DNA from: a plasmid
Sequence record: OW969666.1
Strand: one strand, 5' to 3'
DNA: 64,000 nucleotides
Shown here one piece after another: positions 24,060 through 57,854 of the stretch. Below the pieces are notes generated by a model. The model searched no databases. It worked only from the letters and a program-made list of their open reading frames with translations, and was not told the DNA's origin. The position numbers were made by a program, and so were the translations under genes. Every line of letters starts with the position of its first letter. The first letter of the stretch is position 1.

Positions 24060-25358
<1,299 letters not shown>

Positions 25359-25368
25359 CCACTACACG

Positions 25369-26868
25369 TTAGTTTTCTACTAACTGAACGACGACTAGCC
25401 TGCCGCCTTCCTCCTTTGACAGAACAAACTGAGCGTTATTCGTCAGTTCAATTTTTTCACCAATGGCAATCTGTCGTTTATCCGGTAATGACATAAGCCC
25501 ATTTATGCCTTCATTTACTAACCACCACTGATCGTTATGGAAAACAAAATACCCAACTCGTTTCCTTTGTGCATCGGTTGTGCGCTCATTTGGCGCAATG
25601 AGGCGATTCACATGCCACGCATAGATTGACTGCCCGCTCCACACCATCAACCGGTGATCGTCAGGACGATAACTGCCTTCCTTTCGGGATGAATATAAAT
25701 TTAGAACCGGTAATTTACCCTTGTATGGCGTACCGCAGTAGGGACAAACCGGCTTTGTCTTACCTGAGAAAACGTACCATTTCTGTTCACACGCCTTGTT
25801 CTGGCAGGGCTGTATCAGATCGACTGTTTTAACCAGGGCACTTTCCCACTCATCGGCGGTCGGGCGTTTAGTGGCATCGTGTAAGCCATCAATAAAGGCG
25901 CGTTCAAACAAAGGCGTCAGATAAGGGCCCATGATGGTGTAAGGAATTTTCTCCGGGTCAGCCCAGGGCAGTGAAAAGGAGGATAGCTGACTGACTTTGA
26001 CTGCATTGCTTTTGTCTGTCGGATGTTCAATGAAGAGTGCCTTCTCACCCATAGATAAGGTCTCATCACGTACTTCATCCGACATGTCATGTATTTTTCC
26101 GCCACGTAGCGGATGACGGAAGAACAGATACATGTAGATAAGCACCGACAGCGCATGACGGTCAGTAGAAATGCTTGGCAATACGCGGTTCGGATCCTCT
26201 TTGGAAAGATGGCTGGTTTTCACCACTTCCGGAGCGATAAAATCCGGGGTGCCCACGACGTCGGGAGGATACTTTCCAGGGACAACCAGGCCGTCTACGT
26301 CAATGATGCAGGCATGTCCCATTTCTGGATCGATAAGCACGTTTTTATAGCTTAGATCGCTGTGACAGAGACCTGCCGCATGCATCCTTCTGACGGCTCT
26401 TGTTAGCAGCAGACAGACCTTGAGATAGGTAAGCGTATTGCCTCGTTCACGTGGGTCGAGAAATTTATTCTGGTTGCTGGCGCTGGCAAACCATTTGCCT
26501 TCCTTTTCACGGCCTTTTATGCCAAGAAAATCATCGTTTTTAGAGCCGTATTTAAAGAAAAAGTAGCTTTTGTAGGTTGGAACCACGATGCCGATTTTAT
26601 CCCCATGCTCAACAACGTGGGTCGGCCAGCAAAACAGGTCCTTCCAGTATTCACCTCCGGACTGGCCAAAAATGTTTTGCCTGTAGCGTCCGGTGATCAT
26701 ATCAATCCGATCCCGGGCCTGCTCGTTCTGCGGTTTATGATAAAAAGCGACGACGTATGATTTATCAGGCGAGAAGTAAACATCCTTCATCGAGCCCGAA
26801 CCAATTACCTCGTCAACATACTGGACTGTTTCGCCGTCCTTTGTTTTGCACGTAACAATATTTGCCAT
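25369..26868 (-). CDS. Ser/Thr protein kinase with C-terminal zinc-ribbon (TerY-P triad kinase), 499 aa from ATG 26868
   Basis: HSDLSYKNVLID catalytic-loop motif, DVDG, APE motif; C-terminal CQNKACEQ…CPYCG; RBS GGTGA; last gene of the terY operon. Confidence 0.8.
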   Translation of the reverse strand: MANIVTCKTKDGETVQYVDEVIGSGSMKDVYFSPDKSYVVAFYHKPQNEQARDRIDMITGRYRQNIFGQSGGEYWKDLFCWPTHVVEHGDKIGIVVPTYKSYFFFKYGSKNDDFLGIKGREKEGKWFASASNQNKFLDPRERGNTLTYLKVCLLLTRAVRRMHAAGLCHSDLSYKNVLIDPEMGHACIIDVDGLVVPGKYPPDVVGTPDFIAPEVVKTSHLSKEDPNRVLPSISTDRHALSVLIYMYLFFRHPLRGGKIHDMSDEVRDETLSMGEKALFIEHPTDKSNAVKVSQLSSFSLPWADPEKIPYTIMGPYLTPLFERAFIDGLHDATKRPTADEWESALVKTVDLIQPCQNKACEQKWYVFSGKTKPVCPYCGTPYKGKLPVLNLYSSRKEGSYRPDDHRLMVWSGQSIYAWHVNRLIAPNERTTDAQRKRVGYFVFHNDQWWLVNEGINGLMSLPDKRQIAIGEKIELTNNAQFVLSKEEGGRLVVVQLVEN

Positions 26869-26893
26869 ATTGATCACCGAAGAAGCGTATCCC

Positions 26894-28534
26894 TTACCAC
26901 AACACCGCAATAGTGCGGTCATCGTGGTTCCCTGTGGAGAAAAAGTTAAGCCAGTCGCCTAACCTCTCAGGCGCAATACTGGCGTCTGTAAGGACAGGGA
27001 TGAGCTCATCAAGGAGACGGGTCCATTTTTCGTCACTGCGAAGCCCGTTATCTGTCTCAAACAGAGGGTCTGATACGCCATCTGTCATGAGGATCAAGTG
27101 AGATACATCATTCCATTTACCCACGCTGATGCGGCCGCTAAACGAGGGGTCTGCGATAATGCTCTGGTCAAGAAAGCGGGTTTGTCCTGCGTATTCTCCG
27201 CTATCGGGATTTCCCAGTATCCTGACTTTACCGGAAGGGCTGTATGCACCTATCGCACCATCACCAAGCCAGAATGCAGCCGCAAACAGCTCATTATCAG
27301 TTCGTAGCGCTACAGTTGCCAGTAGGGTTGTTGAATAGGATTTCACAGGTTGTTCTGCACAAATGGCTTCGTTCTGGATACTGTTGACCGCGAGCGTAGC
27401 TGCCTGTTTAAAATGATGAAGCATGGCGTTTATGGTTGCCTGCTGATCGCTCCCTTCCCACGCCGTGATGTGCTGCTTTAGATGGACGCCTTTCAAACCA
27501 CTGAGCTGATTGAAAAGGTAATCGCCAGCCGTTTGGACTGCAATCCGGGAGCCTTCCCGGGAATTTACCGCACTACCGGCCCCGTCTGCGACCAGCATGA
27601 CAGACCATCCTGTTTCCTGGCAGTGGTTGATATAGAAGTCGTCATCTCTGAAGCTCCCGGCATGCTCATGAGATCGTCCCCGGCGACTGGCGGCAGCAAT
27701 ACGTATGTCACCCCTGACCAGGCCAGCAGCGTCCAGATGGGACTTAGGGTAGGAAGCGCCTGCTGGTGGCTCTACCACCTTCCACAGGCTTCTCGGATCG
27801 GGATTGACTATAAAAAGCTGTTTTGTTTCGCATTCGTCGTGCGAAGCGCATGACCAGAGTACTGAAAGCTCTATATCGCCGCTTTCGGTGGGTGTACCTG
27901 TCAGCAACTTATGCTCTTTGTCAAAGGTCAGGCCAATGTTCCTGGGAAAGACAACGTCCCTGACAGTAGCCTGCTGGCCCTCATCCAGAACTATAGCAAC
28001 CGGCGAAGAGAAACGTTCGCCTGCGCGGGCGTTGGGAATAACTATTTTAGCTCTCGGGGGAACGGCAGGTGGCACAGCTAATCCGGCCCGCTGCTGGCCT
28101 GTCGGTATCTGCCCGGGTTTTAATACCAGGGAAGACAGGTTTTCGTCTTCCCTCTGTGCTGGTTTATCAAATTCGTAATAAGGCATCAGCTTCCAGAACG
28201 GAGGATGAGGTTCATTTTCTGGCAGGGGTTGCAGTAATGGTGTATCGGTAGCGTCAATGCCCGGGTTATCTGCATCACTTACGACCGTTTGTTGCTGATC
28301 GGAAAGGCTGGATGCTGACGAGGGGGCGATCTCTGCGTCGTTATAACCTTCGCTAACCCGCGCAGATAAACCCTGTGCAAGGCTCTCAATCCGCTCTTTA
28401 AGCCGCATAATCTCTTCAGTAAGGGAAGGGTCGTGCGATAGAAGAAAAAGCCGCTCACCTTCTACAGGGTGGCCCAGCTCAGACAGCACTAAGCGGATAA
28501 TCTTCTCTTCAAGTAAAGCATTTTGCGACATCAA
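26894..28534 (-). CDS. PP2C-family Ser/Thr phosphatase with an uncharacterised ~280-aa N-terminal region
   Basis: C-terminal VADGAGS…MTDGV PP2C metal-binding motifs; start overlaps the upstream vWA gene. Confidence 0.8.
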   Translation of the reverse strand: MMSQNALLEEKIIRLVLSELGHPVEGERLFLLSHDPSLTEEIMRLKERIESLAQGLSARVSEGYNDAEIAPSSASSLSDQQQTVVSDADNPGIDATDTPLLQPLPENEPHPPFWKLMPYYEFDKPAQREDENLSSLVLKPGQIPTGQQRAGLAVPPAVPPRAKIVIPNARAGERFSSPVAIVLDEGQQATVRDVVFPRNIGLTFDKEHKLLTGTPTESGDIELSVLWSCASHDECETKQLFIVNPDPRSLWKVVEPPAGASYPKSHLDAAGLVRGDIRIAAASRRGRSHEHAGSFRDDDFYINHCQETGWSVMLVADGAGSAVNSREGSRIAVQTAGDYLFNQLSGLKGVHLKQHITAWEGSDQQATINAMLHHFKQAATLAVNSIQNEAICAEQPVKSYSTTLLATVALRTDNELFAAAFWLGDGAIGAYSPSGKVRILGNPDSGEYAGQTRFLDQSIIADPSFSGRISVGKWNDVSHLILMTDGVSDPLFETDNGLRSDEKWTRLLDELIPVLTDASIAPERLGDWLNFFSTGNHDDRTIAVLW

Positions 28535-29571
28535 CCTCTCCCTCTGTTTACGTCGAAGTTAGTGTTTCCGCCATCATTGCTGAATGACAGACCTGTTTCA
28601 CACCACGGGCAGATCACGTCATCCGGGCCGTCAATGCACAGCAATTTTCCGCATGAGCACAGGGCAAACGCACTGGCATTACCGCAGTGAGGGCAACCCG
28701 GTACGCCATGCAGTTCGCTGGTGTTTACCTGCAAACCGGTAGCGGTGGCATCTGACCATGCAAAATAGTCCTCATCGATGGGATAGCATCCGGCAATATT
28801 AAAGCTGTTCAGGTTCAGGCTGAAATCGAGCCCGGAAATCCTTGCTGGTGGCCGTTCATACTTCATCAGATACGGACGACGGGTCTTGCTGCAACGGCCG
28901 GTAAGCGTAACGCAGATTTCGTCGTACGCTTTTACTGGCTCGTCCTTGGCCAGCCGGACTATGTATTCAGTCTGGCTGAGCTCAGGTTGTTTGTCGTCTC
29001 CGACGCTGCGGCTGTGCGCCGTAACCGAGGCTGTGATCCATTTGATGAAGCGGGTAAAGTCCCCTTCCTGAGACTCGGTGAACAGCATGACATTCTCTGT
29101 CAGTTGCCGCAGGGTATTCAGGTCCGCTGACGGCCCCAGGCCAACGGCAATGAGATTCACTTTACTCGCGTAGTGATCCTTCCAGCGCTTCACTTCTGCG
29201 GTTGTGTCGTCAGTCGGACGTCCGTCGGTAAGGAGATACACGACGGGTTTCCAGTCGCCTTTAGCCTCATGAGTGGTTTTTCTGACCTGGGTATCAATTT
29301 GTACGGTCAGCTCACGCAATGCGGCCCCAAGGCTCGTACCGCCGCCAACGGGAAGGCGGGGAGGGTAGAACGAGGCAATTTCGTGAAGAGGTACAATCGT
29401 ACGGGCTACACCGGCAAATGCGATTACCGAAACCCAGGCTGTTTCAAGTGCGTGTGGATCCTTTCTTAAATCTCCGACGATCATTTGCAGACCATCAGTC
29501 ATTTTTTTCAGGTTTTCACCAATCATGGACTCTGAACAGTCCAGGACAAAAAACACGGGAAGGCGTCTCAT
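28531..29571 (-). CDS. terY: TerY-like vWA protein with C-terminal Cys-rich zinc-ribbon, 346 aa from ATG 29571
   Basis: MRRLPVFFVLDCSESM vWA MIDAS start; C-terminal CPHCGN…CSCGK…CPWC. Confidence 0.75.
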   Translation of the reverse strand: MRRLPVFFVLDCSESMIGENLKKMTDGLQMIVGDLRKDPHALETAWVSVIAFAGVARTIVPLHEIASFYPPRLPVGGGTSLGAALRELTVQIDTQVRKTTHEAKGDWKPVVYLLTDGRPTDDTTAEVKRWKDHYASKVNLIAVGLGPSADLNTLRQLTENVMLFTESQEGDFTRFIKWITASVTAHSRSVGDDKQPELSQTEYIVRLAKDEPVKAYDEICVTLTGRCSKTRRPYLMKYERPPARISGLDFSLNLNSFNIAGCYPIDEDYFAWSDATATGLQVNTSELHGVPGCPHCGNASAFALCSCGKLLCIDGPDDVICPWCETGLSFSNDGGNTNFDVNRGRG

Positions 29572-29656
29572 AATTTTCCTCGTACGGCTGGTACGGCCAG
29601 CAGAAAACGTTGCTGTACAGAAAGGTGCTGCCCGGAAAGCAGCACCTTTCTGTCTG

Positions 29657-30298
29657 TCAGAGCACCAGCTGGATTTCTGGTGGAGGAGGGGGAAGGGTAT
29701 CAGTTCCGTTATTGATCCCCGCGCTTGTGCTGCCGGAAGACACGCTGGCCGATACCCATTTAAAGAAACCTGCAAACGCGGTTGAATCTAGCGTCTCCAG
29801 AGACACAACCTTATCGGTGAGCTGTTTTAAGTGCTCATGGCCTGCTTTAGGACCAACGGCGCAGGCAATGATGGATCCGAATCCCCGGCCGCGAATCGCT
29901 TTTACCGCTTCACCGTACGCCAGGGCATCAGAAGGGGTTCCATCAGTCATCAGGAATACCAGAGGACGCCAGTCTCCTTTTGTATCACCATCTGAGCGAC
30001 GTACATCCCGTTCAACACACTGCATCAGACATTCAAGGGCAGCACCGGTGAACGTCCCGCCTGCGCTTGGCACAACGATATCAGAAAACTGGAAGTCTTC
30101 CAGCGGCGTGAGAGGAATGAACTCACGCGCCCCATTGTCATAGGTGATAATGGAGATATGAACGCTTTCGAGGGCGTAGGGATCCTGGCGAAGAGCGCTA
30201 AGCATCGCCTGAATTCCAACGTTAACGGAATGGATGGACTCACCGCGCATCGAGCCGGATGTGTCGATAACAAGGTAAACAGGCAGGCGGCGCATCAC
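29657..30298 (-). CDS. terY: TerY-like vWA protein, 213 aa
   Basis: MMRRLPVYLVIDTSGSM (DxSxS MIDAS) …LMTDGTPSD. Confidence 0.8.
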   Translation of the reverse strand: MMRRLPVYLVIDTSGSMRGESIHSVNVGIQAMLSALRQDPYALESVHISIITYDNGAREFIPLTPLEDFQFSDIVVPSAGGTFTGAALECLMQCVERDVRRSDGDTKGDWRPLVFLMTDGTPSDALAYGEAVKAIRGRGFGSIIACAVGPKAGHEHLKQLTDKVVSLETLDSTAFAGFFKWVSASVSSGSTSAGINNGTDTLPPPPPEIQLVL

Positions 30299-30936
30299 AT
30301 GTAATTCCTCAGGTGCGAGACAAACGAATCTGATTCTGAAGGCTCACCAATTGCCCTGAGTTTCCAGCCTGTAGCCTCGCGTATCAGCTCGGCAAAAACC
30401 ATGGAGCGCTGGCTGGCGAAGGCGGGTCCGCCAGAAAGATCGAATCGTGCCATTTCAATATTACGGGCATCTACTGCCCGGATGAAGGCATTCTGAACTT
30501 TACCAAAGTGCTGCTGGAGCTTTTCACCATTGTAGATCTGAACGATGAACACAATTTTCTCGTACTGAGCGTCAAGGGAATTCAGGCGCACAATAATTTG
30601 CTCATCGTCACCGTCACCGGCTCCGGTTCGGTTATCGCCCGTCAGCCAGATATTTCCTGACTTATGGCGAAGGCTGTTGAAAAAGATGATATCGCCATTC
30701 ACAAGCGTTGGTTTACCATTTTCCACATTGCCGAGATCGGTCACCTTTCCGGCTGAATTACACAGGAAAGCGATCACATCAAGGTCGTATTCTTCTTCTT
30801 TTTTACCAAAGATCCCGCCGAGGAAACCTTTCTTTTCCTCATTAATATCCCAACCCAGGCCGATAGTAACGGACGAGAGATCGTATTCATTTTTTTTCAG
30901 GCTTACGCCCTGGCCTTTGCTCAGACTGACAGACAT
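30295..30936 (-). CDS. terX: TerX (TerD-family protein)
   Basis: Shares the family's [10 protein letters not shown]-terminus and the Ca-binding GDNRTGAGDGDDE motif seen in TerD/TerE. Confidence 0.85.
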   Translation of the reverse strand: MSVSLSKGQGVSLKKNEYDLSSVTIGLGWDINEEKKGFLGGIFGKKEEEYDLDVIAFLCNSAGKVTDLGNVENGKPTLVNGDIIFFNSLRHKSGNIWLTGDNRTGAGDGDDEQIIVRLNSLDAQYEKIVFIVQIYNGEKLQQHFGKVQNAFIRAVDARNIEMARFDLSGGPAFASQRSMVFAELIREATGWKLRAIGEPSESDSFVSHLRNYM

Positions 30937-30958
30937 GACATCCCCTTAATTAATAAAA

Positions 30959-31597
30959 TTATAAGACCACGTTTACTTCTGGCGGCGGCGGTGGCAGGTC
31001 TTCAAGACCGATCACTTCTTTTTTGCTGGACTCCACTTTCTGACTGCCTACCGAAATGCTCGCACTGACCCATTTAAAGAAAGCTTTAATCGTCGAACTG
31101 TCAGCTGTATCGAGCTGAACCACGATTTCAGTGATTTCTTTGAGGACGCTGGTATCGGCATCATGCCCGGCTGCACATGCCACAACAACGCCGGTTCTGG
31201 CCGCTTTAAAGTCATTCAGGCCTTTACGCCAGTCATCATTCGGACTTCCATCCGTCATCAGGAATACAAGGGGACGCCAGTCACCTTTAGTGTCAGCCGT
31301 CGTTTTCTGTACTTCTTTGGCAATGGAGCTGGCCGTCAGGGTAAGCGCTTCGCCAAGAGAGGTGGTGCCGCTGGCTGTTAGTGCTGGCATCTGGAAACTC
31401 AGGAGGTCTGTCAGGGGGACTGCCTGTCGGGCTGAAGAATCAAAGGTGATCACTGACACGTAAGCCGTTTCGAGTGCATACGGATCCTGTTTCAGCGTGG
31501 TAAGCAGCGTCTGAACGCCATTCTTAACCGCTTCGATAGGCTCTCCGTGCATAGAGCCGGACGTGTCGAGTAGCAGATATACGGGTAAGCGTCTCAA
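30959..31597 (-). CDS. terY: TerY-like vWA protein, 212 aa from TTG start
   Basis: LRRLPVYLLLDTSGSM; RBS AAGAAGGAA 6 nt upstream of TTG; the track ORF extends further 5' without an ATG near the conserved N-terminus. Confidence 0.7.
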   Translation of the reverse strand: MRRLPVYLLLDTSGSMHGEPIEAVKNGVQTLLTTLKQDPYALETAYVSVITFDSSARQAVPLTDLLSFQMPALTASGTTSLGEALTLTASSIAKEVQKTTADTKGDWRPLVFLMTDGSPNDDWRKGLNDFKAARTGVVVACAAGHDADTSVLKEITEIVVQLDTADSSTIKAFFKWVSASISVGSQKVESSKKEVIGLEDLPPPPPEVNVVL

Positions 31598-32014: not shown

Positions 32015-32047
32015 GAAATATGACAAAACCGGGGTTTTCACCCCGGT
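32015..32047 (-). terminator. Rho-independent terminator after terW
   Basis: accggggtgaaaaccccggt followed by a U-rich tract on the minus strand. Confidence 0.65.
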
Positions 32048-32060
32048 CTGAGATTTAGCG

Positions 32061-32528
32061 TCAGGACTTTTTAGCGCTGTATTCTTTTATCAGTTCATCA
32101 ACGGAGTGCAGAGCCAGCTTCTCTACCGCTTCACTTCGGGTCGAGCCACTCAGCGCAGCCAGACGGTCAATTTTTCTTAAAATCCGCATGCGTAGCGATA
32201 ATGACACGGCTGTTTTTTTATCCTTATCGAGTACGACCTTCCCTGTGGACTCACCGGTTTTCAGTTCAGCATTCTGTGCGAGCGCTTCATTCATCCGGCG
32301 AAGGGTCTTTTTATCCAGCTGGCCCGGATTAACGAGATGGTATGAATGACCTGCCTTGCTGTATTTGATCTCCGCAGAATATGACTCGCGTAGCTCTTTG
32401 AGTGCCCGGGTTAATGTCGGCTCTGAGCATTCCAGACTGGTTATAATGTCGGCAGCGGAAACGGGCTTGCCGGTGCCCAGTAAGTTGGCAAGCTTAAAAA
32501 TCCGGGCCTGTCTGGTATTTAATTGCAT
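32061..32528 (-). CDS. terW: TerW, HTH transcriptional regulator of the ter region, 155 aa
   Basis: Size, N-terminal HTH (…DIITSLECSEPTLTRALKEL…) and position match terW of ter loci. Confidence 0.7.
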   Translation of the reverse strand: MQLNTRQARIFKLANLLGTGKPVSAADIITSLECSEPTLTRALKELRESYSAEIKYSKAGHSYHLVNPGQLDKKTLRRMNEALAQNAELKTGESTGKVVLDKDKKTAVSLSLRMRILRKIDRLAALSGSTRSEAVEKLALHSVDELIKEYSAKKS

Positions 32529-32545: not shown

Positions 32546-33754
32546 TTAAAGGGTTAGTGGTTCAATAGGCTGAAAAATGAAGGTACTGCTCATCTTTCGA
32601 ATAACCGGTTGATCGCCTAACGCTTCAACCGGATCAATGTGTTCTAAGCCTGCAAAATTTACTGACGACATCTGGCTGCGACTGCATTTGCAGGACAGGA
32701 TATACTCATCCTCCAGATAGCCGGTCCGCTTACTGACCCGTTGCGTAAAGCCTGACACAATCACGTTGTCGAACGGTAGCGTATGTAAAACGATACCGAC
32801 CAGGCGGAACAAGCAGCCATGGACGTGGCGGGCATAGTTTTCGCGTACGGCTTTTTGCGTCATGGCTTTTTCCGTCAGCTCCGTGCCCCGGGCATTAACG
32901 CCGTAAATCTTATCAGGGAAATCTTCAATCTCAGCTAAATCAACATCCAGCAGGACTGCTGATAGCTCCGGCTTTACTTCAAATGCAACAAGCGTTTCAC
33001 GCGGCCATTCAGTTTCTGCCAGCACACCCGCCAGGTATGATTCGAAAAACGCGGCGTCTGTCCGGAACTGCTGCCGGGCATCTGCCTGAGCCGTGGCGAG
33101 CCGTTTTTCATGTTCTTCAGCCTCAAACTTCCAGTTTGCATACTGTTCGGCCCAGGCCGTCCGTTGTTGCTGGTACCGGTGCTGTCGAAGGGTATTCTCA
33201 CGCTCCACATCAATCAGCTCCTGCTGCCACCGGCGAAGATTTTCGGCGTGGCGCTCAGCTTTAGCTGATTCCGATTCAAACCATTTACCCAGAAAACTAA
33301 TGCCTTCGCTCTCGGCAGGCTTTTCCGGCAATGCAAGATAGTCTGGCTTTTCTGGACGCACCGGTGCCGGAACCTGAAAAGGCGACGTTCTGTTATGCAG
33401 GTATACTGCTTCCAGCTCTGCCCAGCTGATGCCTGTTTTGGGATCCGGCGTCAGCTCGTGAATATTACGGATTGCGGTCACCGCTGACATGAGATCAGCG
33501 GCTTCCTGCTCAAGCGCCTGTCTGAGCCCCGGGTCGGTAGCCGTCCGGTTCCCACCTCCGGAACGCGCGGCCCGGTCAAGCCGGGTACGGTAACTCAGCC
33601 CGGTACCGGGCAAGCCCAGATTGGCATAGGTCCCCCGGCTTCCAAAAGAAACGGAAGCACCTCTCGGCCCGACACTCAGGCTCGGTGCACCGTTACTCAG
33701 GTTGAGGCGAACACCAGGAATAATGTTGATCGACTTTCTGAACCTGAACCCCAT
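32546..33754 (-). CDS. DUF4236-like protein, 402 aa, with a coiled-coil C-terminal region
   Basis: N-terminal MGFRFRKSINIIPGVRLNLS… DUF4236 signature; Q/E/R-rich heptad-like middle. Confidence 0.6.
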   Translation of the reverse strand: MGFRFRKSINIIPGVRLNLSNGAPSLSVGPRGASVSFGSRGTYANLGLPGTGLSYRTRLDRAARSGGGNRTATDPGLRQALEQEAADLMSAVTAIRNIHELTPDPKTGISWAELEAVYLHNRTSPFQVPAPVRPEKPDYLALPEKPAESEGISFLGKWFESESAKAERHAENLRRWQQELIDVERENTLRQHRYQQQRTAWAEQYANWKFEAEEHEKRLATAQADARQQFRTDAAFFESYLAGVLAETEWPRETLVAFEVKPELSAVLLDVDLAEIEDFPDKIYGVNARGTELTEKAMTQKAVRENYARHVHGCLFRLVGIVLHTLPFDNVIVSGFTQRVSKRTGYLEDEYILSCKCSRSQMSSVNFAGLEHIDPVEALGDQPVIRKMSSTFIFQPIEPLTL

Positions 33755-33764
33755 TATGATTTCC

Positions 33765-34721
33765 TTAATGATGCTGGGTCACGGTAAGTAATCTGATTCC
33801 ATCAGCGCTTTGCTCGTTCTGTAACCCATAAAAACGAGCTCTGTCCAGAATGCCAGCCGCCCAGCGGCGATGTGTGGCGGGTTCACACATTGCTCCCTGC
33901 GACTTAAACACGGCCTGGGTCGAGTTCAGGATCCGCAGAGCGTCAGAATGCTCACCCTGAGTGACCATCAGCGCGTTTTGAATGACCTCTATCTGACCCG
34001 GGTGAATGGCCGTTTTCCCAACAAGCCCATGTGCCATATCAAGAGCCAGCTCTCTGGCCATTACGGCATGATCGTCAATATGCTCACATACGGGCGCGGT
34101 CAGGGCAAAATCACGCGGGCCGAAGACCGAAACGAGCATTTTGATGACGTAGCCCATCGGGCTGTCATACAGCGTCAGGTCCCGGGGACGGCGAAGCGAC
34201 ACAACGTTCATAAGATCGTTGCCGCCGATTCGAAGCGCAATAATGCGGTCGTGGCAGGGATGTTCCACCAGACGGGTGGCCAGCTCCCGCATCTGAACCA
34301 CGTCAAAGACGTCTTCTGTTTCCAGCGTTGGCATCATGCACAGGTGAGTCCCGCCCATGATATCCCACCATTCAGCTAACGAACTGAGGGTAAATTTCGG
34401 CAACACAAACCCGTCGACAGCGGAAAGATCATAATGCGCTTTTAACCATCTGCCCATGTCGGCATGCCGGGGGCGAATGAACACCAGAGGCCAGTCATTT
34501 TTACCCAGGCTACGCATGCTGTTACTGAGCTCGTGCAGCAGGTGCTCCAGATTTTTGAGGGCGATGGGGATGTCTGCTTCACTGACAGCATCCTCAAGGC
34601 AAATTACCAGAGAGCGCAAACCCGGGATTTTCCCATGCAGGACGGCATCAGCAATATCTTCCCGTGTTGCAGGCATGTATAGCGTGGCTCCCAGATTCCA
34701 GGGAGAAAGACGATTTTTCAT
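33765..34721 (-). CDS. HpcH/HpaI aldolase / citrate-lyase beta-like enzyme, 318 aa
   Basis: TIM-barrel lyase motifs (…LVICLEDAV…, …IRIGGNDL…, …GKTAIHPGQIEV…). Confidence 0.75.
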   Translation of the reverse strand: MKNRLSPWNLGATLYMPATREDIADAVLHGKIPGLRSLVICLEDAVSEADIPIALKNLEHLLHELSNSMRSLGKNDWPLVFIRPRHADMGRWLKAHYDLSAVDGFVLPKFTLSSLAEWWDIMGGTHLCMMPTLETEDVFDVVQMRELATRLVEHPCHDRIIALRIGGNDLMNVVSLRRPRDLTLYDSPMGYVIKMLVSVFGPRDFALTAPVCEHIDDHAVMARELALDMAHGLVGKTAIHPGQIEVIQNALMVTQGEHSDALRILNSTQAVFKSQGAMCEPATHRRWAAGILDRARFYGLQNEQSADGIRLLTVTQHH

Positions 34722-35800
34722 CAGAGTACCTTCTTGATAATGGTTACAGCCCGATACTGGCCGAGGGTTCCCCCCATTTCTGTAACAACTATTCCCTTTT
34801 CACGAGCAAGCCCTACAAGCAAGGCAACGTCCGGGTCGTCAATAGAACGCACAAATATATGGTCCGGTACCCGACGCAATACAGCCCGGGTTGCTTCAGC
34901 AATACCGGGTTTAATACGATTGACGCTGTCCACTTTAAATTCATCGGCCAGGAACGCGATAACGTCGCGACTTGTCTGCCATAAGATCCGGGCTGACTCC
35001 GTATTCCAGCTCAGGGGAGCGAGGGATGTCGGTGTTAACTTCTTACGGAAATGAGCGACGGTATCGACAAGCATCCGGCTGCATTCGAATTCACTGAGAT
35101 GCTCGCAAACCATGCACCCATGTAATCCTTCAGAGGACCATACTGACCGGGAGATCAGACCTGATACCGGCGCACCCATGATGCCAAAAGGAATGAGCCA
35201 GTCATCATCACTTGCTGCAAGCCAGGAACAGCCACAGGGATCGGCCAGGACAACCAGTCGCGGCTGCTCAGGATAGCCCGGGCGATCTTTCAGTGCGCGT
35301 ACAAGCTCTCCGGTAATTGCGCCTTTACCTGTCCATCCGTCAACAAAGACAATACCGCTGGTACCATGCCGCTCTTCAATGACGTCGAGTGCTGCACCGT
35401 CAATTCCACGATCCCGGATGATGCTGATGCCGTAATGCCATGAGGTTTTCCCCATGTCACGCAGGGCCTGGTGCAGCATAACGCCGAGCGGTACGCCAGC
35501 TCTGACAAGACTGGCCAGTACAATGGGCTCATCACCGAAGCGTTCGGCCAGAGAAATAGCGAGCTGTGTGACTTCTTTTGCAAGCCTCTCTGCGCCCCGA
35601 TCCAGCGCCCGGTGAAACAAATCAAGATGCCATTGTGTTGGTGCTGGCTCCTGGCTGAGCATGTCTGAATAATGTTTCTTCCCGGACTGAATCAGCTCTT
35701 CTTTTTGATCAACCGGCGTCATCTCAATGACAACCGGCTTTAGCAGAAATTCCACGTCACCGGGCTGGTATGAGCCGGTAAATGTTTCATGTGGCTGCAT
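34721..35800 (-). CDS. PRTase-related protein of the ter-linked biosynthetic cassette, 359 aa from ATG 35800
   Basis: …GIVFVDGWTGKGAITGEL… nucleotide/PRPP-loop-like segment; RBS GGAGA; track ORF start 35866 overlaps the HAD gene. Confidence 0.6.
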   Translation of the reverse strand: MQPHETFTGSYQPGDVEFLLKPVVIEMTPVDQKEELIQSGKKHYSDMLSQEPAPTQWHLDLFHRALDRGAERLAKEVTQLAISLAERFGDEPIVLASLVRAGVPLGVMLHQALRDMGKTSWHYGISIIRDRGIDGAALDVIEERHGTSGIVFVDGWTGKGAITGELVRALKDRPGYPEQPRLVVLADPCGCSWLAASDDDWLIPFGIMGAPVSGLISRSVWSSEGLHGCMVCEHLSEFECSRMLVDTVAHFRKKLTPTSLAPLSWNTESARILWQTSRDVIAFLADEFKVDSVNRIKPGIAEATRAVLRRVPDHIFVRSIDDPDVALLVGLAREKGIVVTEMGGTLGQYRAVTIIKKVL

Positions 35801-35801
35801 T

Positions 35802-36575
35802 TTAATTTTCTCCAAAAATTCGCTGTGAAATGGCATCTGCAAACTGACTCTGACGCGGGATGCCAAACCAGCTGCACAGTTTCATAAAACGATGATCGCT
35901 CAGGCTGTCGCCCAGACCAATTACGGGGAAAACGCCGCGTTCAGCCCGAAGTTTTTCAAGCAGCCAGCTGACGGCCAGCCCTTTCTCAACCGGGGTGGGT
36001 AGCCAGGCCACGTTATTACTGTTGCGGTGGATGTAGAAGCCCTCGGTCGGAAACACCGTTTCTATCTCATCTGCAATGGCATTGAGCTCGTCAAGGCGGG
36101 TGCTGTCGCGGTGTTTCATCACCATATAAACCGCCGTTTCACCGTATTCGAAGTTCAGTCTTGCCCAGGCATTAATCCCTTTTGCGTCCATCATTTCAGT
36201 GATCAGTCGCTGCATCGATGTCAGCTTTTCCTGATAGGGAGCCAGCTGGCCGAGCATATGGGCCTTCCACTCCTCGTCGGGGTTGCCTTCAGGCGTGAGA
36301 ATGACGGCCCCGTGCGTGGTGATTGCCCAGGAGTGGAAAGGGATCCGTACGCGGCTGATTTCTTCAGTTCCCCGTGCGGTAACGGGAATGAGTTCAGCCT
36401 GCTCCAGAAGCCAGTCCACTAACATGGACTGTTCTTCCGTCATAAAGCTTCGTGGATTCAGGGTACGATCAACGGCACCGGTACGGAATGGCTCCAGGGC
36501 CAGCTCGTCCACCATTTTACGACGGGTCTGAAAGAGCGTGTCGTCAAGGTCGCTCAGAACAACGGGTTTATTCAT
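35802..36575 (-). CDS. HAD-superfamily phosphatase, 257 aa from ATG 36575
   Basis: MNKPVVLSDLDDTLF (DxDxT motif I); ATGA overlap with the upstream gene. Confidence 0.75.
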   Translation of the reverse strand: MNKPVVLSDLDDTLFQTRRKMVDELALEPFRTGAVDRTLNPRSFMTEEQSMLVDWLLEQAELIPVTARGTEEISRVRIPFHSWAITTHGAVILTPEGNPDEEWKAHMLGQLAPYQEKLTSMQRLITEMMDAKGINAWARLNFEYGETAVYMVMKHRDSTRLDELNAIADEIETVFPTEGFYIHRNSNNVAWLPTPVEKGLAVSWLLEKLRAERGVFPVIGLGDSLSDHRFMKLCSWFGIPRQSQFADAISQRIFGEN

Positions 36576-37716
36576 AGGTAACAATCTCCACGACGGGCGC
36601 AACCTCAGCCAGCGCCTTAAGAAGCTGCGCGTCAATACTTTCTGCGGGTGTCTCAGTACACACAAGAATGCGGTCAAACTGCTGGTGGGCGACGTTATAG
36701 ACAAAATTGGGGATGCCCAGCCCGTAGTTATCCGTAAAGGAAATGGCGGACTCAATGGCATAACCAACGGCGATAGGGGAGCGGGTAGTCGAACCGTAAA
36801 ATGCCTTTGCCCCGGCAGCTTCGAGCCGTTCTGCAAGCAGGAACGGCTCCCAGACGAATTCCCCTGTCCCGAGAACCAGAACACGCTCCCCTTTGCGGAC
36901 GGAAACCTCATGGCCGAGATCGGCCGCAGGTGCGAGCATCCCCAGTCGACCCCATGACTGTTTCCCCTGGATGTCCCATTCTCCGCGTGAAGTTACGTTG
37001 ACTTTTGGCATGTCCGGGACCGGTGCATCTGGTAATGTGGTCCATCCCCACTGACCGCTTACAAGAGAAACAGAAGTGACGGGTAAGGTGCTGCGCTCGG
37101 ACAAGGCTTTGCCACTCCAGTCGGTAAGCGTAACGGCGATAACCTGTTCAATATGTTGAAGCTTGCCGGTATTACGCAGGGCAGAAAGCAGGTTAATAAA
37201 GGTATTACCGGTGGTTGCCTCGTCATCAATCAAAACCAGCGTTCGCGCGTTGGTAACACGACGTCTTTTCTCTTCATCATCTGGCAGATAGATCAGATGA
37301 TCAGTGGCGTGGCTGTGTTCTTCCTTGAACTCGCAAAGCAACGTGCCATCAACCGGGTGACGGGTAGAGGTCAGATATACAGATTCACGATGCTGGTGGC
37401 GCACTTCATCAAACACACCGGCCCCAAGCCCAACGGCGGTTTCAGCCATACCGATAAACAGTACGGGCCCTGTTAGCGTTGAGGGGAACTGGCTGGCAAG
37501 CTGTCTGTAGGCCTGCCGCATGACTGAGGGTGGCACGGGAATGTGCCTGCCGAGTACTTTGCTGACAAACAGAAAGGCGCGTTTCGGGTTACGTCTTTCA
37601 GCGATATCAAACAGGTCATCGAGCGAAACTTCACCCTGATCGCGGATTACCTGAATCGTACCGCATGAGAGGGTACGGCGATAAATCATATCTTCGAGGT
37701 TATCAGACATAAACAC
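36568..37716 (-). CDS. Phosphoribosyltransferase-domain protein, 382 aa
   Basis: …RTLVLIDDEATTGNTF… PRPP-binding motif. Confidence 0.75.
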   Translation of the reverse strand: MFMSDNLEDMIYRRTLSCGTIQVIRDQGEVSLDDLFDIAERRNPKRAFLFVSKVLGRHIPVPPSVMRQAYRQLASQFPSTLTGPVLFIGMAETAVGLGAGVFDEVRHQHRESVYLTSTRHPVDGTLLCEFKEEHSHATDHLIYLPDDEEKRRRVTNARTLVLIDDEATTGNTFINLLSALRNTGKLQHIEQVIAVTLTDWSGKALSERSTLPVTSVSLVSGQWGWTTLPDAPVPDMPKVNVTSRGEWDIQGKQSWGRLGMLAPAADLGHEVSVRKGERVLVLGTGEFVWEPFLLAERLEAAGAKAFYGSTTRSPIAVGYAIESAISFTDNYGLGIPNFVYNVAHQQFDRILVCTETPAESIDAQLLKALAEVAPVVEIVTYE

Positions 37717-37719
37717 GCC

Positions 37720-38778
37720 TTAATTCAAAAGGTTAGAGAGTGATTCCGGGTATGCAATTACATCCGTAATGGATCTCACCGCAACCGGAGAAAAGGTGTT
37801 TTTAGCGCTCTGGCGCACCATATCTTCAGACATCAGACCGAGCTTAAAGGCAGCAAATAACCCAGGAAGGTTCACCCCGCTGTGAAGGGTATAACCCACC
37901 CCCCCTGACGGACGCATGTTGGTTTCAAGCAGCACCGGGTTGCCATTCACATCGTTTCGCGTCTGAACATTCACCAGCCCGTCGGCCTTCATAACCCGGG
38001 CGCAGTCACACGCCAGTTCCCAGGCGCTACCTTCGTTTACCAGATACTGGATAGCCCCTTCCTTACGGCGTCCCACGGCTGCGAGTATTTCGCCCTTATC
38101 CGCGAGGATATCGACGGAAAATTCCGGGCCTGGCAGGTACGGCATCAAAACAAGGGGTTTAAACGACTCAGCAGCTGATGCTGCTGCAATATACTGTTGC
38201 GGACTGACCAGACGATGTTCGGGATGATTAAAGACGGCCATAGGCGAAGCACTGTCATCAAAGCGCCAGAATCCCATGCCATAGATACCCGTCACCGGCT
38301 TCACGCATATCGGGCTGTCAGTGAACGGCGGGGACGCGAGGTGTGTCTTTAATTCTGCCAGCGTATTCACCCGCCAGGATGGTACAACCGGGAGTCCCTT
38401 TTGCTCCATAAACTGAGCAAAAGTAACTTTTTCGTCAGCCAGAGTTAACCAGTCGACGCTCGTTGCACCGGTAGTAAGGGTGGCACCGGTCGATTCAATG
38501 TCTGAACGGTGTTCTTCAAACCACTGGCTGTTACGGCCAGTATGAATATGGTGGATGCCGTAGGTCTGAATGGTTTCCTGAATAAACTGGAGACGTTTTT
38601 GAGGATCTTCAGGTTCAGTCAAAGAATAATCGGCAACGGAAAGGATTTCATTTCTTTCGTTACGGTGGGAGGCAAAAACGGTAATGGCAAAATTATTTTT
38701 TTGTGCAAATGATTTTACCCCCTGAATAATATCTCGCTGGGAGGATAAACCTTCCATAAACCAAATTTTCTTGTTCAT
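37720..38778 (-). CDS. ATP-grasp enzyme, 352 aa (first gene of the cassette)
   Basis: ATP-grasp features (…KPVTGIYGMGFW…, …FSVDILADKGEILAAVGRRKEG…); divergent from terZ. Confidence 0.7.
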   Translation of the reverse strand: MNKKIWFMEGLSSQRDIIQGVKSFAQKNNFAITVFASHRNERNEILSVADYSLTEPEDPQKRLQFIQETIQTYGIHHIHTGRNSQWFEEHRSDIESTGATLTTGATSVDWLTLADEKVTFAQFMEQKGLPVVPSWRVNTLAELKTHLASPPFTDSPICVKPVTGIYGMGFWRFDDSASPMAVFNHPEHRLVSPQQYIAAASAAESFKPLVLMPYLPGPEFSVDILADKGEILAAVGRRKEGAIQYLVNEGSAWELACDCARVMKADGLVNVQTRNDVNGNPVLLETNMRPSGGVGYTLHSGVNLPGLFAAFKLGLMSEDMVRQSAKNTFSPVAVRSITDVIAYPESLSNLLN

Positions 38779-39099
38779 TTTTTTTAATTATCCGGAACGC
38801 CATGCAAATTTATGATTGAGAAGTGAGTCTATGAGTGTCTAAGCTACATGTCAATCATAATATGATTAATAACTTCTGTGGTTATGGAGTGAGTCAGTAT
38901 TTTTTGGATTCCCGATAAAGTATTGATATTTAAATTAAACATAGAAAATTAACACCCTGAAAAGATTTTCTTTTTGTGTTTTTACAGAAAACTACCAAAA
39001 TTTCCCTTGTCAGAGAACTTCATCATGATATGATTTTCTTCGTCAGTTAATAAACAACCCTTTGATTGTCTCGGTCATTACCATTTTAAGGAATAAAAC
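38779..39099. promoter_or_regulatory. AT-rich divergent promoter region between the biosynthetic operon and terZABCDEF
   Basis: 320-bp AT-rich intergenic region; inverted repeat TTATGATTGA-N31-TCAATCATAA at ~38808-38858. Confidence 0.5.
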
Positions 39100-46785: not shown

Positions 46786-48112
46786 ATCTATGGTCACTCC
46801 CGTTTTTGCAACACCGATTTTGACGACAAGTTGGCTTGCTTGAATCTATCCGGCGTCTGAATGGGATTTTATTCCCGCGCCTTGATGAGTTCCGCGCCTG
46901 ATGAACCTCCAGAAAATATACGGCTTCAATGAGCCTTTCCGTTTTACAGGTTCCTCAACAGGCCGGTGGGCCGTTAGTATCATCAATATCAGTATTCGCA
47001 AAACCAGATCAGTAATTCTTTAAACCGGTGTATTTCTGCCGTTATGCTACATAAGTTTGCTGTCGTGCCGTTAGGGCCCAGGCTATTCTGGCCAGCTTGT
47101 TTGCCAGAGCACAAGTGACGACAAAGTTGCTTTTCCGGCACAGTAAATCCCTGACCCAATCGGCCAATTTGCCAGACTGGTGTTCCAGTTTTTGTATGAA
47201 TACCCTGGCACATTGAACCAACAAAGTTCGGATCTTTTTATTACCTCGCTTACTAATTCCCAGCAATGTCGTCCTACCTCCCGTGCTGTACTGCCGAGGT
47301 ACAAGCCCTGTTGCCGCCGCAAAGTCACGGCTGCTGGCGTACTGCTTCCCGTCGCCAATCTCAGTTGAAATAGTACTCGCTGTCAGTGTTCCGACGCAGG
47401 GAATGCTCAGCAAGCGCTGTCCAACCTCATCTTCGTCCAACTTTCGTTTCAACTGGGATTCCAAATCTTTAATCTGCTCAACAAGATAGTGATAATGCTG
47501 TTGTAATTTCAGCAATAACTGGCTGAGGTAAAGAGGCAAACTATTATCCTCAAGAATGGTACTCAGTCGGCTAATAACGGCAGCTCCTCGGGGAACGCTA
47601 ATGCCAAATTCCAGCAGAAAAGCATGCATTTGATTGGTTGTTTTTACCTTATCCTGAACCAGGGATTCACGGACACGATGCAGAGCCCGCATTGCCTGCT
47701 GAGATTCCGTTCTGGGCTGCACAAAACGCATAGACGGACGCGATGCAGCTTCACAAATAGCTTCGGCGTCGACAAAGTCGTTTTTATTGCTTTTAACGAA
47801 CGGGCGGACAAATTGTGGTGATATCAGCTTTGGGGAATGCCCCAACTCTTCCAACTTGCGTGCCATAAAGTGAGAACCGCCACAGGCTTCCATTGCGATG
47901 GTTGTAGCGGGGCATGTCGCCAAAAATTCGATCAACTTTGGCCGGGTAAATTTTTTACGGTAAACAGCCTTCCCGCGACGATCCTGGCAATGAATATGGA
48001 AAGAGTTTTTACCCAGATCGATACCAATGAGCGCAATGTTTTCCATGATAGTTCTCCGAATGAAAGCCTGTCCTCAGCATAGTACCGGGAAGGAGGGAGT
48101 GACCATCTCATT
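46786..48112 (-). mobile_element. IS4321/IS5075-like element (IS110 family, IS1111 group), 1327 bp, copy 1
   Basis: Inserted at the characteristic position inside a Tn21-type inverted repeat; identical inverted copy at 57855-59181. Confidence 0.9.
47042..48046 (-). CDS. IS110-family transposase, 334 aa
   Basis: MENIALIGIDLGKNSFHIH… N-terminal DEDD RuvC-like region typical of IS110/IS1111 transposases. Confidence 0.9.
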   Translation of the reverse strand: MENIALIGIDLGKNSFHIHCQDRRGKAVYRKKFTRPKLIEFLATCPATTIAMEACGGSHFMARKLEELGHSPKLISPQFVRPFVKSNKNDFVDAEAICEAASRPSMRFVQPRTESQQAMRALHRVRESLVQDKVKTTNQMHAFLLEFGISVPRGAAVISRLSTILEDNSLPLYLSQLLLKLQQHYHYLVEQIKDLESQLKRKLDEDEVGQRLLSIPCVGTLTASTISTEIGDGKQYASSRDFAAATGLVPRQYSTGGRTTLLGISKRGNKKIRTLLVQCARVFIQKLEHQSGKLADWVRDLLCRKSNFVVTCALANKLARIAWALTARQQTYVA

Positions 48113-48145
48113 AAATAAAGCACGCTAAGGCGTAGTTCCCTCGGG

Positions 48146-48580
48146 CTACACCGCGTCCGCACTGCGCGGTTCTTTCTTCCCTTGCAGTGACGCAATCAGC
48201 GGGCAGGAAACGTTCCCCTTCCGCGCATGGCAGGCGCACACCAAATCAGACAGCACGGCCTCCATGCGCGCCAGGTCAGCCATCCTCTCGCGCACGTCCT
48301 TGAGCTTGTGCTCGGCCAGGCTGCTGGCTTCCTCGCAATGGGTGCCATCCTCCAGCCGCAGCAGCTCGGCGATCTCATCCAGGCTGAAACCCAACCGCTG
48401 GGCTGATTTCACGAAGCGCACCCGCGTTACATCCGTCTCGCCATAGCGGCGAATGCTGCCGTAAGGCTTGTCCGGTTCCGGGAGCAAGCCCTTGCGCTGA
48501 TAGAACCGGATGGTCTCCACATTGACCCCGGCCGTCCTGGCGAAAACGCCAATGGTCAGGTTCTCCAAATTGTTTTCCAT
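48146..48580 (-). CDS. merR: MerR mercury-responsive regulator
   Basis: [14 protein letters not shown]… near-identical to Tn21/Tn501 MerR. Confidence 0.95.
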
Positions 48581-48651
48581 ATCGCTTGACTCCGTACATA
48601 ACTACGGAAGTAAGCTTAAGCTATCCAATTCAGATTCGAAAGGACAAACGT
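48581..48651. promoter_or_regulatory. mer operator/promoter (divergent PmerR/PmerT)
   Basis: Intergenic region between divergent merR and merT; dyad tccgtacat-N-ctacggaag. Confidence 0.7.
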
Positions 48652-49002
48652 ATGTCTGAACCTCAAAACGGGCGCGGCGCGCTCTTCACTGGCGGGCTGG
48701 CCGCCATCCTCGCCTCGGCTTGCTGCCTCGGGCCGCTGGTTCTGATCGCCTTGGGGTTCAGCGGCGCTTGGATCGGCAACTTGACGGTGTTGGAACCCTA
48801 TCGCCCCATCTTTATCGGCGTGGCGCTGGTGGCGTTGTTCTTCGCCTGGCGGCGCATCTACCGGCCGTCAGCCGCCTGCAAACCGGGTGAGGTTTGCGCG
48901 ATTCCCCAAGTGCGAGCTACTTACAAGCTCATTTTCTGGGGCGTGGCCGTGCTGGTTTTGGTCGCGCTCGGATTTCCCTACGTCGTGCCATTTTTCTATT
49001 GA
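48652..49002 (+). CDS. merT: MerT mercuric ion transporter
   Basis: 116 aa; CC pair in the first TM helix. Confidence 0.95.
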   Translation: MSEPQNGRGALFTGGLAAILASACCLGPLVLIALGFSGAWIGNLTVLEPYRPIFIGVALVALFFAWRRIYRPSAACKPGEVCAIPQVRATYKLIFWGVAVLVLVALGFPYVVPFFY

Positions 49003-49017
49003 TCACAGGAGTTCACC

Positions 49018-51184
<2,167 letters not shown>

Positions 51185-51200
51185 AAAAAGGAGGTTTTCA

Positions 51201-51566
51201 ATGAGCGCCTACACCGTGTCCCGGCTGGCCCTTGATGCCGGGGTGAGCGTGCATATCGTGCGCGACTACCTGCTGCGCGGATTGCTGCGTCCGGTGGCGT
51301 GCACCCCGGGCGGCTATGGCCTGTTCGATGATGCCGCCTTGCAACGGCTGTGCTTCGTGCGGGCGGCCTTCGAGGCGGGCATCGGCCTGGACGCGCTGGC
51401 GCGGCTGTGCCGGGCGCTGGATGCTGCGGACGGCGATGAAGCGGCCGCGCAGCTTGCCGTTCTGCGCCAGTTCGTCGAGCGTCGGCGCGAAGCGTTGGCC
51501 GATCTGGAGGTGCAGTTGGCCACCATGCCGACCGAGCCGGCACAGCACGCGGAGAGTCTGCCATGA
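51201..51566 (+). CDS. merD: MerD co-regulator
   Basis: 121 aa MerR-like HTH. Confidence 0.9.
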
Positions 51567-51799
51567 ACAGCCCCGAGCGCTTGCCGTCCGAGACGCACAA
51601 ACCGATCACCGGCTACCTGTGGGGCGCGCTGGCCGTGCTCACCTGTCCCTGCCATTTGCCGATTCTCGCCATTGTGCTGGCCGGCACGACGGCCGGCGCG
51701 TTCATCGGAGAGTACTGGGGTATCGCAGCCCTCACGCTGACCGGTTTGTTCGTCCTGTCTGTGACACGACTGCTGCGGGCCTTCAAAGATCGATCATGA
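51563..51799 (+). CDS. merE: MerE
   Basis: 78 aa, two TM helices, CPC motif. Confidence 0.85.
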
Positions 51800-51851
51800 G
51801 CGCTTCCCATTGAGACAAACCACGCTGTCGCTACGTTGCCTCATGCCGGCA

Positions 51852-52466
51852 TCAAATTCGGCTGAGTAGCTTCTCGCCATCTGGACGTAGCTCACCCTTG
51901 GGTGAAACATGCCGATACAGGGTCTGCCGCGTGACGCCAAGTTCCTGGCACAGGTCGCCGACCTTGGTCTCTGGCTGACCCATTGCCGCCATCGCCAGCC
52001 GCAGCTTGGCGGCGGTCATCTTGAACGGCCGGCCGCCTTTCCGCCCGCGCGCGCGGGCCGAGGCTAGGCCGGCAATCGTGCGCTCCGCGATCAACTCGCG
52101 CTCGAACTCGGCCAGGGCGGCGAAGATGCCAAAGACCAGCTTGCCGGCGGCGGTCGTGGTGTCGATGGCCGCGCCGTGCCCGGTTAATACCTTCAAGCCG
52201 ATGCCGCGCCCAGTCAGGTCGTGCACGGTGTTGATGAGATGTCGCAGGTCGCGTCCGAGCCGATCCAGTTTCCACACGACCAGTGTGTCGCCAGTTCGCA
52301 ACGCCTTCAGGCAGCTCGTCAAGCCGGGCCGATCCTCGCGCATGCCGGATGCCTGGTCCTCGTAAAGATGTACTGGATCGACCCCGGCGGCAATCAGCGC
52401 GTCGCGCTGCAAATCGGTAGCCTGGGAGCCGTCCGCCTTCGATACCCGCATGTAGCCTATCAGCAT
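51852..52466 (-). CDS. tniR: TniR (TniC) serine resolvase of the Tn402/Tn5053 tni module
   Basis: MLIGYMRVSKADGSQATDLQRDAL…; 204 aa. Confidence 0.9.
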   Translation of the reverse strand: MLIGYMRVSKADGSQATDLQRDALIAAGVDPVHLYEDQASGMREDRPGLTSCLKALRTGDTLVVWKLDRLGRDLRHLINTVHDLTGRGIGLKVLTGHGAAIDTTTAAGKLVFGIFAALAEFERELIAERTIAGLASARARGRKGGRPFKMTAAKLRLAMAAMGQPETKVGDLCQELGVTRQTLYRHVSPKGELRPDGEKLLSRI

Positions 52467-56331: not shown

Positions 56332-56449
56332 GCCCAAACCTCGCTTTGGTGCACACGAGTATTGAGCATAGTCGAGATTGGTGCAGACGACTCCTGATAT
56401 TGGGCTGTCAGGAGCCGTATGCACACCAGGCGTTACATCCAGTCAGATG

Positions 56450-57843: not shown

Positions 57844-57854
57844 CGTGCTTTATT

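Follow-up and report, generated by a model that had tools for sequence, protein, structure and literature searches.

The closest described system to the locus analysed here is the Ter-associated biosynthetic module which, together with its predicted product, a pyrimidine-derived ribonucleoside, is credited to Anantharaman, Iyer & Aravind (2012, Mol Biosyst) in PMC11994780 and PMC8115787. In a later description by the Aravind group, the product is a signal for which TerB/TerD act as sensors (PMC7824862), and in the Klebsiella literature this type of cassette is named a 'putative biosynthetic cluster' (PMC8115787). The ter structural genes alone, either terZ-F (PMC8115787) or terBCDEF (PMC11003894), confer tellurite resistance and, therefore, a tellurite phenotype may be uninformative about the cassette. 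In papers of 2023 to 2026 that refer back to the study of 2012, the function of the module continues to be described as unknown. We analysed a window of 64,000 nucleotides (nt) from a plasmid (sequence record OW969666.1), which carries such a cassette divergent from terZ. The cassette is real and intact and its reading as a biosynthetic module is sound, but as a prediction it is already in print, and the window brings no fresh angle to the question posed by the module. A first-pass annotation of the window had called the cassette its most novel biology, a claim that has to be given up since, according to PMC11994780 and PMC8115787, module and prediction date from 2012; its statement that the product has not been chemically identified stands, since none of the papers in the literature searched, the latest from 2026, reports it.

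The cassette and the module of 2012 share their five enzyme families, the linkage to TerD/TerB/TerC genes and the class of product predicted. The Pfam matches (E-values of 1e-24 to 1e-113) are to ATPgrasp_Ter, PRTase_2, TRSP, PF11202, PELOTA_1 and C-C_Bond_Lyase, Pfam families that take their names from the Ter-associated module, and enzyme families as well as neighbourhood correspond throughout to the five-enzyme configuration described in PMC11994780. Nothing essential differs; the window adds a DUF4236 protein and TerW within the transcription unit and a shared candidate operator. Further, the locus is of the same type as the ter locus of K. pneumoniae, E. coli and R478 (terXYW side), which is divergent from terZABCDEF (PMC8115787), but the replicon is an Enterobacter IncFIB/IncFII-type plasmid and not IncHI2.

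Organisation of the cassette

The ORF (open reading frame) list and the RefSeq starts gave seven tightly packed ORFs on the minus strand, from 38778 down to 32061 and divergent from terZ. The start codons are those of a RefSeq record with 100% identity, the Enterobacter hormaechei plasmid pC44_001 (IncFIB/IncFII). In transcription order, the genes are separated by 9, -8, 1, -1, 10 and 17 nt. The features are listed below (PRTase, phosphoribosyltransferase; HAD, haloacid dehalogenase; HTH, helix-turn-helix; aa, amino acids).

37720..38778, minus strand: ATP-grasp ligase, 352 aa, ATPgrasp_Ter family (PF15632)
36568..37710, minus strand: PRTase_2 + TRSP phosphoribosyltransferase, 380 aa (PF15609, PF12500)
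35802..36575, minus strand: HAD-superfamily phosphatase, 257 aa, IIB/MPGP-like (TIGR01486, TIGR01484, motifs)
34721..35800, minus strand: StiP (formerly PRTase_1) + PELOTA_1 protein, 359 aa (PF11202)
33765..34721, minus strand: CitE/HpcH-like TIM-barrel C-C lyase, 318 aa (PF15617)
32546..33754, minus strand: DUF4236 protein, 402 aa (Pfam DUF4236)
32061..32528, minus strand: terW, final gene of the operon, HTH regulator (AMRFinder, 100% identity)
32026..32049, minus strand: terminator-like hairpin with a 10-bp stem (6 GC pairs) and a T-rich tail, starting 12 nt past the terW stop codon
39100..39681, plus strand: terZ, first gene of the divergent terZABCDE(F) operon (ORF list and RefSeq record)

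ORFs, gaps, promoter (see below) and terminator agree with the earlier description of a single minus-strand operon, divergent from terZ and with the gene order given there: the cassette is one operon of five enzymes, followed by DUF4236 and TerW, between a predicted promoter and a terminator. The interval assigned to it, 32546-38778, contains six of the genes, but TerW (32061-32528) falls outside. Mechanically called ORFs of 369, 381 and 382 aa were over-extended, the products being of 257, 359 and 380 aa according to the RefSeq starts and alignments of homologues; by the same evidence, plus-strand ORFs within the cassette genes (e.g. 33870-34379) are artefacts. The same 7.1 kb was found at a coverage of at least 80% in 1,248 plasmid records, almost all with 95–100% identity, and the arrangement is therefore not due to chance. 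The ter island has insertion sequence (IS) elements on its flanks.

Domains and catalytic motifs of the cassette proteins

Pfam matches were strong and above threshold for six of the seven proteins. The ATP-grasp protein matched ATPgrasp_Ter (PF15632) with an E-value of 7e-38 and, in NCBIfam, PRK12767 (carbamoyl-phosphate-synthase-like) with 6.5e-13, which is under the cut-off. The motifs LLE(T/I)NMRPSGG and C(V/I)KP were kept in 14 sequences; domain, Mg-binding E-x-N motif and ATP-binding Lys are those expected from the sequence of an ATP-grasp enzyme. The PRTase_2 protein matched PRTase_2 (PF15609, 2e-63) and TRSP (PF12500, 9e-24). Its loop for binding of 5-phosphoribosyl 1-pyrophosphate (PRPP), VLIDDEATTGNT, was conserved in 16 sequences including Endozoicomonas and fits the type I pattern of a hydrophobic strand, two acidic residues and TG.T, as read from the sequence and not from a modelled fold. 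Neither single-sequence nor profile searches of the PDB gave a usable match for the ATP-grasp and PRTase_2 proteins, the former being without a solved relative by sequence.

The HAD protein scored weakly with hidden Markov models (HMMs): TIGR01486 (MPGP) was matched with 6e-9 and 35.6 bits (cut-off 164.75) and TIGR01484 (HAD-IIB) with 4e-5 and 23.8 bits (cut-off 41.8). HAD motifs I (DLDDT), II (IPVT, in IPVTARG) and IV (GDSLSD) were conserved in 16 sequences. Judged from these motifs, membership in the HAD superfamily holds and, by score, subfamily IIB is only a candidate. The lyase matched C-C_Bond_Lyase (PF15617) with 2e-113, and its profile found citrate lyase beta and acyl-CoA lyase beta in the PDB (5.7e-9 to 1.6e-6). 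The motifs CLEDAV and RIGGNDL, both invariant, and KTAIHP were conserved, as expected for the CitE/HpcH superfamily with its metal-binding Glu (xLEDA) and Asp. With CitE-like acyl-CoA lyases (citrate lyase beta, malyl-CoA/citramalyl-CoA lyase, RipC) it shares the TIM-barrel and the xLEDA and KxxIHP motifs (3qll, 5.7e-9), but it is far under the equivalog cut-offs of RipC (34 bits vs 375) and CitE (20 vs 443) and, therefore, a substrate cannot be transferred from these families.

The StiP protein matched PF11202 (1e-88) and PELOTA_1 (3e-25). Since a comparison of the StiP alignment with PRTase_2 in hhalign gave no usable information (effective number of sequences, Neff, 1.6; probability 0.6%), the fold was assigned by a structure model, according to which the protein would combine a PRTase alpha/beta fold with an L7Ae/Pelota-type domain. 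This agrees with the earlier designation of the second protein as PRTase-related. The modelled fold gives no support to the RefSeq label 'cysteine protease StiP'; no protease was found among the structural neighbours of the model. PyrR, a regulator with a uracil-PRTase fold that binds pyr mRNA, does so via the PRTase domain itself, whereas in StiP the L7Ae/Pelota-type domain is separate from the PRTase domain.

The catalytic motifs of all five enzymes were conserved in 13–15 homologues each, drawn from 15 related loci, and the four enzymes also present in Endozoicomonas keep them at a protein identity of 32–42%. Thus, Pfam and motifs agree with the domain assignments of the first-pass annotation, StiP being PRTase-like by its modelled fold and the HAD protein weak by HMM but with its motifs present.

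A three-gene core linked to TerD

80 loci were gathered via homologues of the DUF4236 protein and screened for cassette genes by tblastn. The complete cassette together with terZABCD was found in 13 loci of Enterobacterales, Shewanella, Marinomonas and Rheinheimera. A version with four enzymes and no ATP-grasp gene, on the same strand as TerD and in a different gene order, was present in two loci of Endozoicomonas, so that linkage of the cassette to TerD/TerZ/TerB/TerC genes was seen in 15 loci. The Acinetobacter jumbo phage vB_AbaM_ME3 encodes TerD-PRTase_2-HAD-StiP in the order found in the window, in agreement with PMC7824862. In the phage region examined (204014-219012), vWA, membrane protein, TerD, PRTase_2, HAD and StiP-like genes form one block, and genes encoding an NAD synthetase and a macro-domain protein (Appr-1-p processing) are located a few kb upstream.

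Because Endozoicomonas lacks the ATP-grasp gene and the phage has three genes only, PRTase_2-HAD-StiP is, judged by gene content, the syntenic core, with lyase and ATP-grasp as add-ons. A full-library search gave 1,835 clusters of the PRTase_2 family at 50% identity. Natural fusions of PRTase_2+TRSP with HAD (P0242, P0255 and P0308, ~635 aa) and of ATP-grasp with PRTase_2 (P0295, 715 aa) were found; they match the gene order of the cassette and support a direct functional coupling of the encoded enzymes.

Divergent promoters and a shared palindrome

The divergent intergenic region comprises 321 bp and contains two copies of ATCAT-N3-ATGAT. The following elements were located.

38826..38854, minus strand: predicted sigma-70-like promoter of the cassette, TTGACA-17 nt-TAGACT (consensus scan, 10 of 12 matches)
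38854..38866, no strand: palindrome ATCATAATATGAT (ATCAT-N3-ATGAT), candidate operator O1, abutting the -35 box of the cassette
39022..39034, no strand: palindrome ATCATGATATGAT, candidate operator O2, overlapping the -10 of the terZ promoter

Across eight divergent intergenic regions the -35 and -10 blocks of the cassette promoter were conserved while the surrounding DNA was not, and in the alignment the block AATCATATTATGATTGACA...TAGACT stands out amid diverged DNA. ATCAT-N3-ATGAT had two matches in the window, both intergenic, where 0.03 were expected. O1 was present upstream of the ATP-grasp gene in all 13 related loci, exact in 11 and with one mismatch in two, the central 3 nt being variable. 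O2 was exact in eight of the 13; in the aligned block of K. grimontii and Rahnella it is one base off, and its region is absent from Shewanella and Marinomonas. A palindrome on both divergent promoters is likely to be a shared operator. The pair is undescribed in the literature searched. No Rfam RNA family was found in or near the cassette, hence no attenuator RNA.

TerW was reported to be a regulator of ter expression (Valkovicova 2011, cited in PMC12054061). The protein gave weak matches to HTH_11 and to the WYL-regulator model of PADLOC, both over its N-terminal part. Residues ~105-140 at its C-terminus, VSLSLRMRILRKIDRLAALSGSTRSEAVEKL, are ribbon-helix-helix-like, for which the sole support is a faint match to the aCcr1 family (E 0.007).

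DUF4236 is an independently distributed gene

The Pfam match of the DUF4236 protein (1e-21) covers only the N-terminal 56 aa. After a beta-rich domain at the N-terminus and a long helix, the protein ends in an alpha/beta domain that is conserved; the motifs WPRET, DVDLPEIE, YARHVHG and SGFTQR in the C-terminal part are invariant in full-length homologues. No enzyme fold was found for it, and the C-terminal domain had no fold match in the PDB. By tblastn, the cassette was absent from 65 of the 80 loci with a DUF4236 homologue, 49 of which had at least 8 kb of upstream flank. Outside of Ter islands no recurring neighbour was found, the largest neighbour family occurring in six of 78 loci; the neighbours, read by eye and not by HMM, were mixed and included an ABC exporter, a WYL-type-regulator-like protein, a two-domain P-loop/AAA-type ATPase, an integrase and a Y-family polymerase. 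Since 65 of the 80 loci are without the cassette, DUF4236 cannot be counted among the conserved members of the pathway and, on the evidence at hand, is none of its enzymes; it is an accessory gene with a distribution of its own, which has been taken up into Ter islands of two kinds. Full-length homologues without nearby Ter genes were present in Deinococcota, Cyanobacteria-like metagenome-assembled genomes, Synergistota, Acidobacteriota, Campylobacterota and many Proteobacteria. DUF4236 looks like a widespread uncharacterised family in its own right.

A proposed pathway and the evidence against it

The cassette is the enterobacterial version, with five enzymes, of the Ter-associated module, and we think it rather probable that it makes a ribose-linked or nucleoside-like product. 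In the pathway we propose, PRTase_2 would couple PRPP to a nucleophilic aglycone, in the simplest case a cellular pyrimidine- or orotate-like base, to give a ribose-5-phosphate adduct, from which the HAD enzyme would strip the 5'-phosphate to leave a nucleoside-like ribofuranoside. In the larger versions of the cassette, the CitE-like lyase would make or trim a carboxylate-bearing side chain by aldol/Claisen chemistry on an acyl-CoA or 2-oxo-acid, and the ATP-grasp enzyme would then join a carboxylate to an amine via an acyl-phosphate intermediate. StiP may be a second PRPP-dependent transferase or a PyrR-like sensor with nucleotide or PRPP as its ligand and RNA as a further binding partner. 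DUF4236 would be an add-on to which no chemistry is assigned. TerW probably represses both divergent promoters via the ATCAT-N3-ATGAT pair, and synthesis of the compound would thereby be coupled to the expression of TerZ-TerF. The product may then be a diffusible signal or effector that acts on the membrane-associated apparatus of TerD/TerB/TerC for stress and phage resistance, dispensable for tellurite resistance itself. That TerD-family proteins are candidate binders of the product, as noted earlier for this window, is an idea already published (PMC7824862) and not new.

Several observations weigh against this pathway. In the PDB, the PRTase_2 profile aligned with orotate phosphoribosyltransferase/UMP synthase solely at the PRPP loop (E 0.02), and as the likeness is confined to this loop a 'pyrimidine-like base' as acceptor is weakly grounded. 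Neither the HAD nor the ATP-grasp protein reached the curated cut-off of any named NCBIfam family. The PRPP loop of StiP, VFVDGWTGKG, has a single Asp in all 16 sequences and no vicinal acidic pair (DD/ED). Uracil PRTases carry a single Asp at the corresponding position of the PRPP loop. CriT likewise lacks the vicinal DD motif (PMC10299916), and catalysis by StiP is therefore still conceivable. The top structural neighbour of the StiP model, ahead of many other PRTases, was a PRPP-dependent O-ribofuranosyltransferase, whose acceptor is a hydroxyl and not a base; because of this neighbour and the RNA-binding-type domain, ribosylation of a non-base acceptor or of a macromolecule is also possible. 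TerW is probably the binder of the palindromes, and the obvious candidate, because it is an HTH protein, is encoded last in the operon and has been reported as a ter regulator; this we infer. Finally, no experimental link between the cassette and a phenotype was found in the literature searched. To derive a ribose-linked or nucleoside-like metabolite from the enzyme set, as had been done before, is thus a reasonable reading with which the domains agree, whereas a free small molecule as its product is what we infer.

Alternative functions

The likeness of StiP to O-ribofuranosyltransferases leads to a first alternative, which we regard as unlikely: one or both PRTase-fold proteins might transfer ribofuranose-5-phosphate from PRPP to a hydroxyl or other nucleophile of RNA, protein or an envelope glycan, with the Pelota/L7Ae domain recruiting RNA and the HAD enzyme trimming the 5-phosphate, as CriT/CrpP do in the Haemophilus influenzae type b (Hib) capsule polymerase Bcs3. 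CriT combines a PRTase-like fold and O-linked transfer from PRPP with a subsequent HAD phosphatase and, as StiP with its single Asp, does without the vicinal DD (PMC10299916), and the pairing of PRTase and HAD is fixed through synteny and gene fusion. But CriT/CrpP and the Thermobacillus composti ribofuranosyl transferase (7shg) resemble StiP by fold only, at ~10% identity, and form part of glycan polymerases, as domains that work on polysaccharide, whereas the cassette encodes separate small proteins, of which PRTase_2 retains the classic DD...TG.T loop of base-type PRTases. Further, no glycan-assembly genes or transporters adjoin the cassette; in the RefSeq annotation of the locus neither glycosyltransferase nor ABC-transporter nor capsule genes were found. 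The accessory C-C lyase and ATP-grasp enzymes are better suited to the tailoring of a small molecule.

To a similar degree improbable, in our view, is a function as defence effector that forms an antiviral or toxic nucleotide analogue, or drains the PRPP and nucleotide pools during phage attack, with the Ter proteins sensing the event or protecting the cell itself. In type III retrons, ShosTA/PsyrTA and Ophion, PRTases do serve as effector or toxin (bioRxiv 10.1101/2025.09.30.679545), a jumbo phage has the three-gene core beside TerD, and the cassette is followed, immediately downstream, by a set of VWA/TerY-C, PP2C and kinase genes. The ter cluster of R478 conferred phage inhibition and colicin resistance, but insertions mapped the phage inhibition to terZ, terA, terC and terD and not to genes of the cassette (both as cited in PMC12054061). 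With PADLOC, PRTase_2 was only a marginal match to PRTase_III-A (E 1e-3 to 2e-3, over 65 residues around the PRPP loop), and no PRTase or defence-effector match was obtained elsewhere in the cassette, StiP included, the only other match being that of TerW to the N-terminal part of the WYL-regulator model. The presence of a phosphatase also points to a nucleoside and not a nucleotide as end product.

Since StiP has an O-ribofuranosyltransferase-like fold, a single Asp and a fused L7Ae/Pelota RNA-binding domain, a StiP-type protein might ribosylate RNA or another non-base acceptor from PRPP, the HAD enzyme removing the 5-phosphate, and no base-type nucleoside would be made. We consider this quite doubtful; if true, Ter-linked stress and phage defence would make use of a new mark or metabolite formed by ribofuranosylation. 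That ordinary salvage or housekeeping enzymes hitch-hike beside the ter genes on a mobile island, functionally unrelated to Ter, is very unlikely, for although the ter structural genes suffice for tellurite resistance and IS elements flank the island, the linkage to TerD-family genes is kept on plasmids, on chromosomes of distant Gammaproteobacteria with another gene order (Endozoicomonas) and in a jumbo phage, a conserved palindrome is common to both divergent promoters and no cassette enzyme attains the cut-off of any housekeeping NCBIfam family.

Surroundings of the cassette

Directly downstream of terW, on the minus strand at 25369-31597, Pfam identified VWA (TerY), TerD-family (TerX) and VWA genes, followed by genes encoding a VWA+TerY_C protein, a PP2C phosphatase and a protein kinase. 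This gene set fits the TerY/phosphatase/kinase arrangement; the VWA/TerY-C, PP2C and kinase genes had no match in PADLOC v2. Two Rfam families scored over the gathering threshold in the window, the Hfq-binding small RNA isrC (24177-24299, plus strand, 146 bits) and the IS1222 ribosomal frameshift element (62091-62208, minus strand, 157 bits), which marks an IS3-family element. The region at ~48000-58000 has a GC content of 58–66%, compared to ~50% in the ter region, and matches mer (merA), TniQ and transposase genes of related plasmids; it is apparently a transposon for mercury resistance that has inserted on the downstream side of the ter genes.

Significance

The ter locus is found on ~1,300 sequenced enterobacterial plasmids and is associated with clinical infection by Klebsiella and with fitness in gut and bladder; a study from 2023 described the molecular mechanism of ter as unknown. 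The increments to the published module are a minimal three-gene core, a RefSeq label that does not fit the predicted fold of StiP, a DUF4236 protein that can be omitted from models of the pathway and a concrete candidate operator for control by TerW. Identification of the product of the enzymes would account for the way in which the Ter proteins are activated, or for what it is that they handle.

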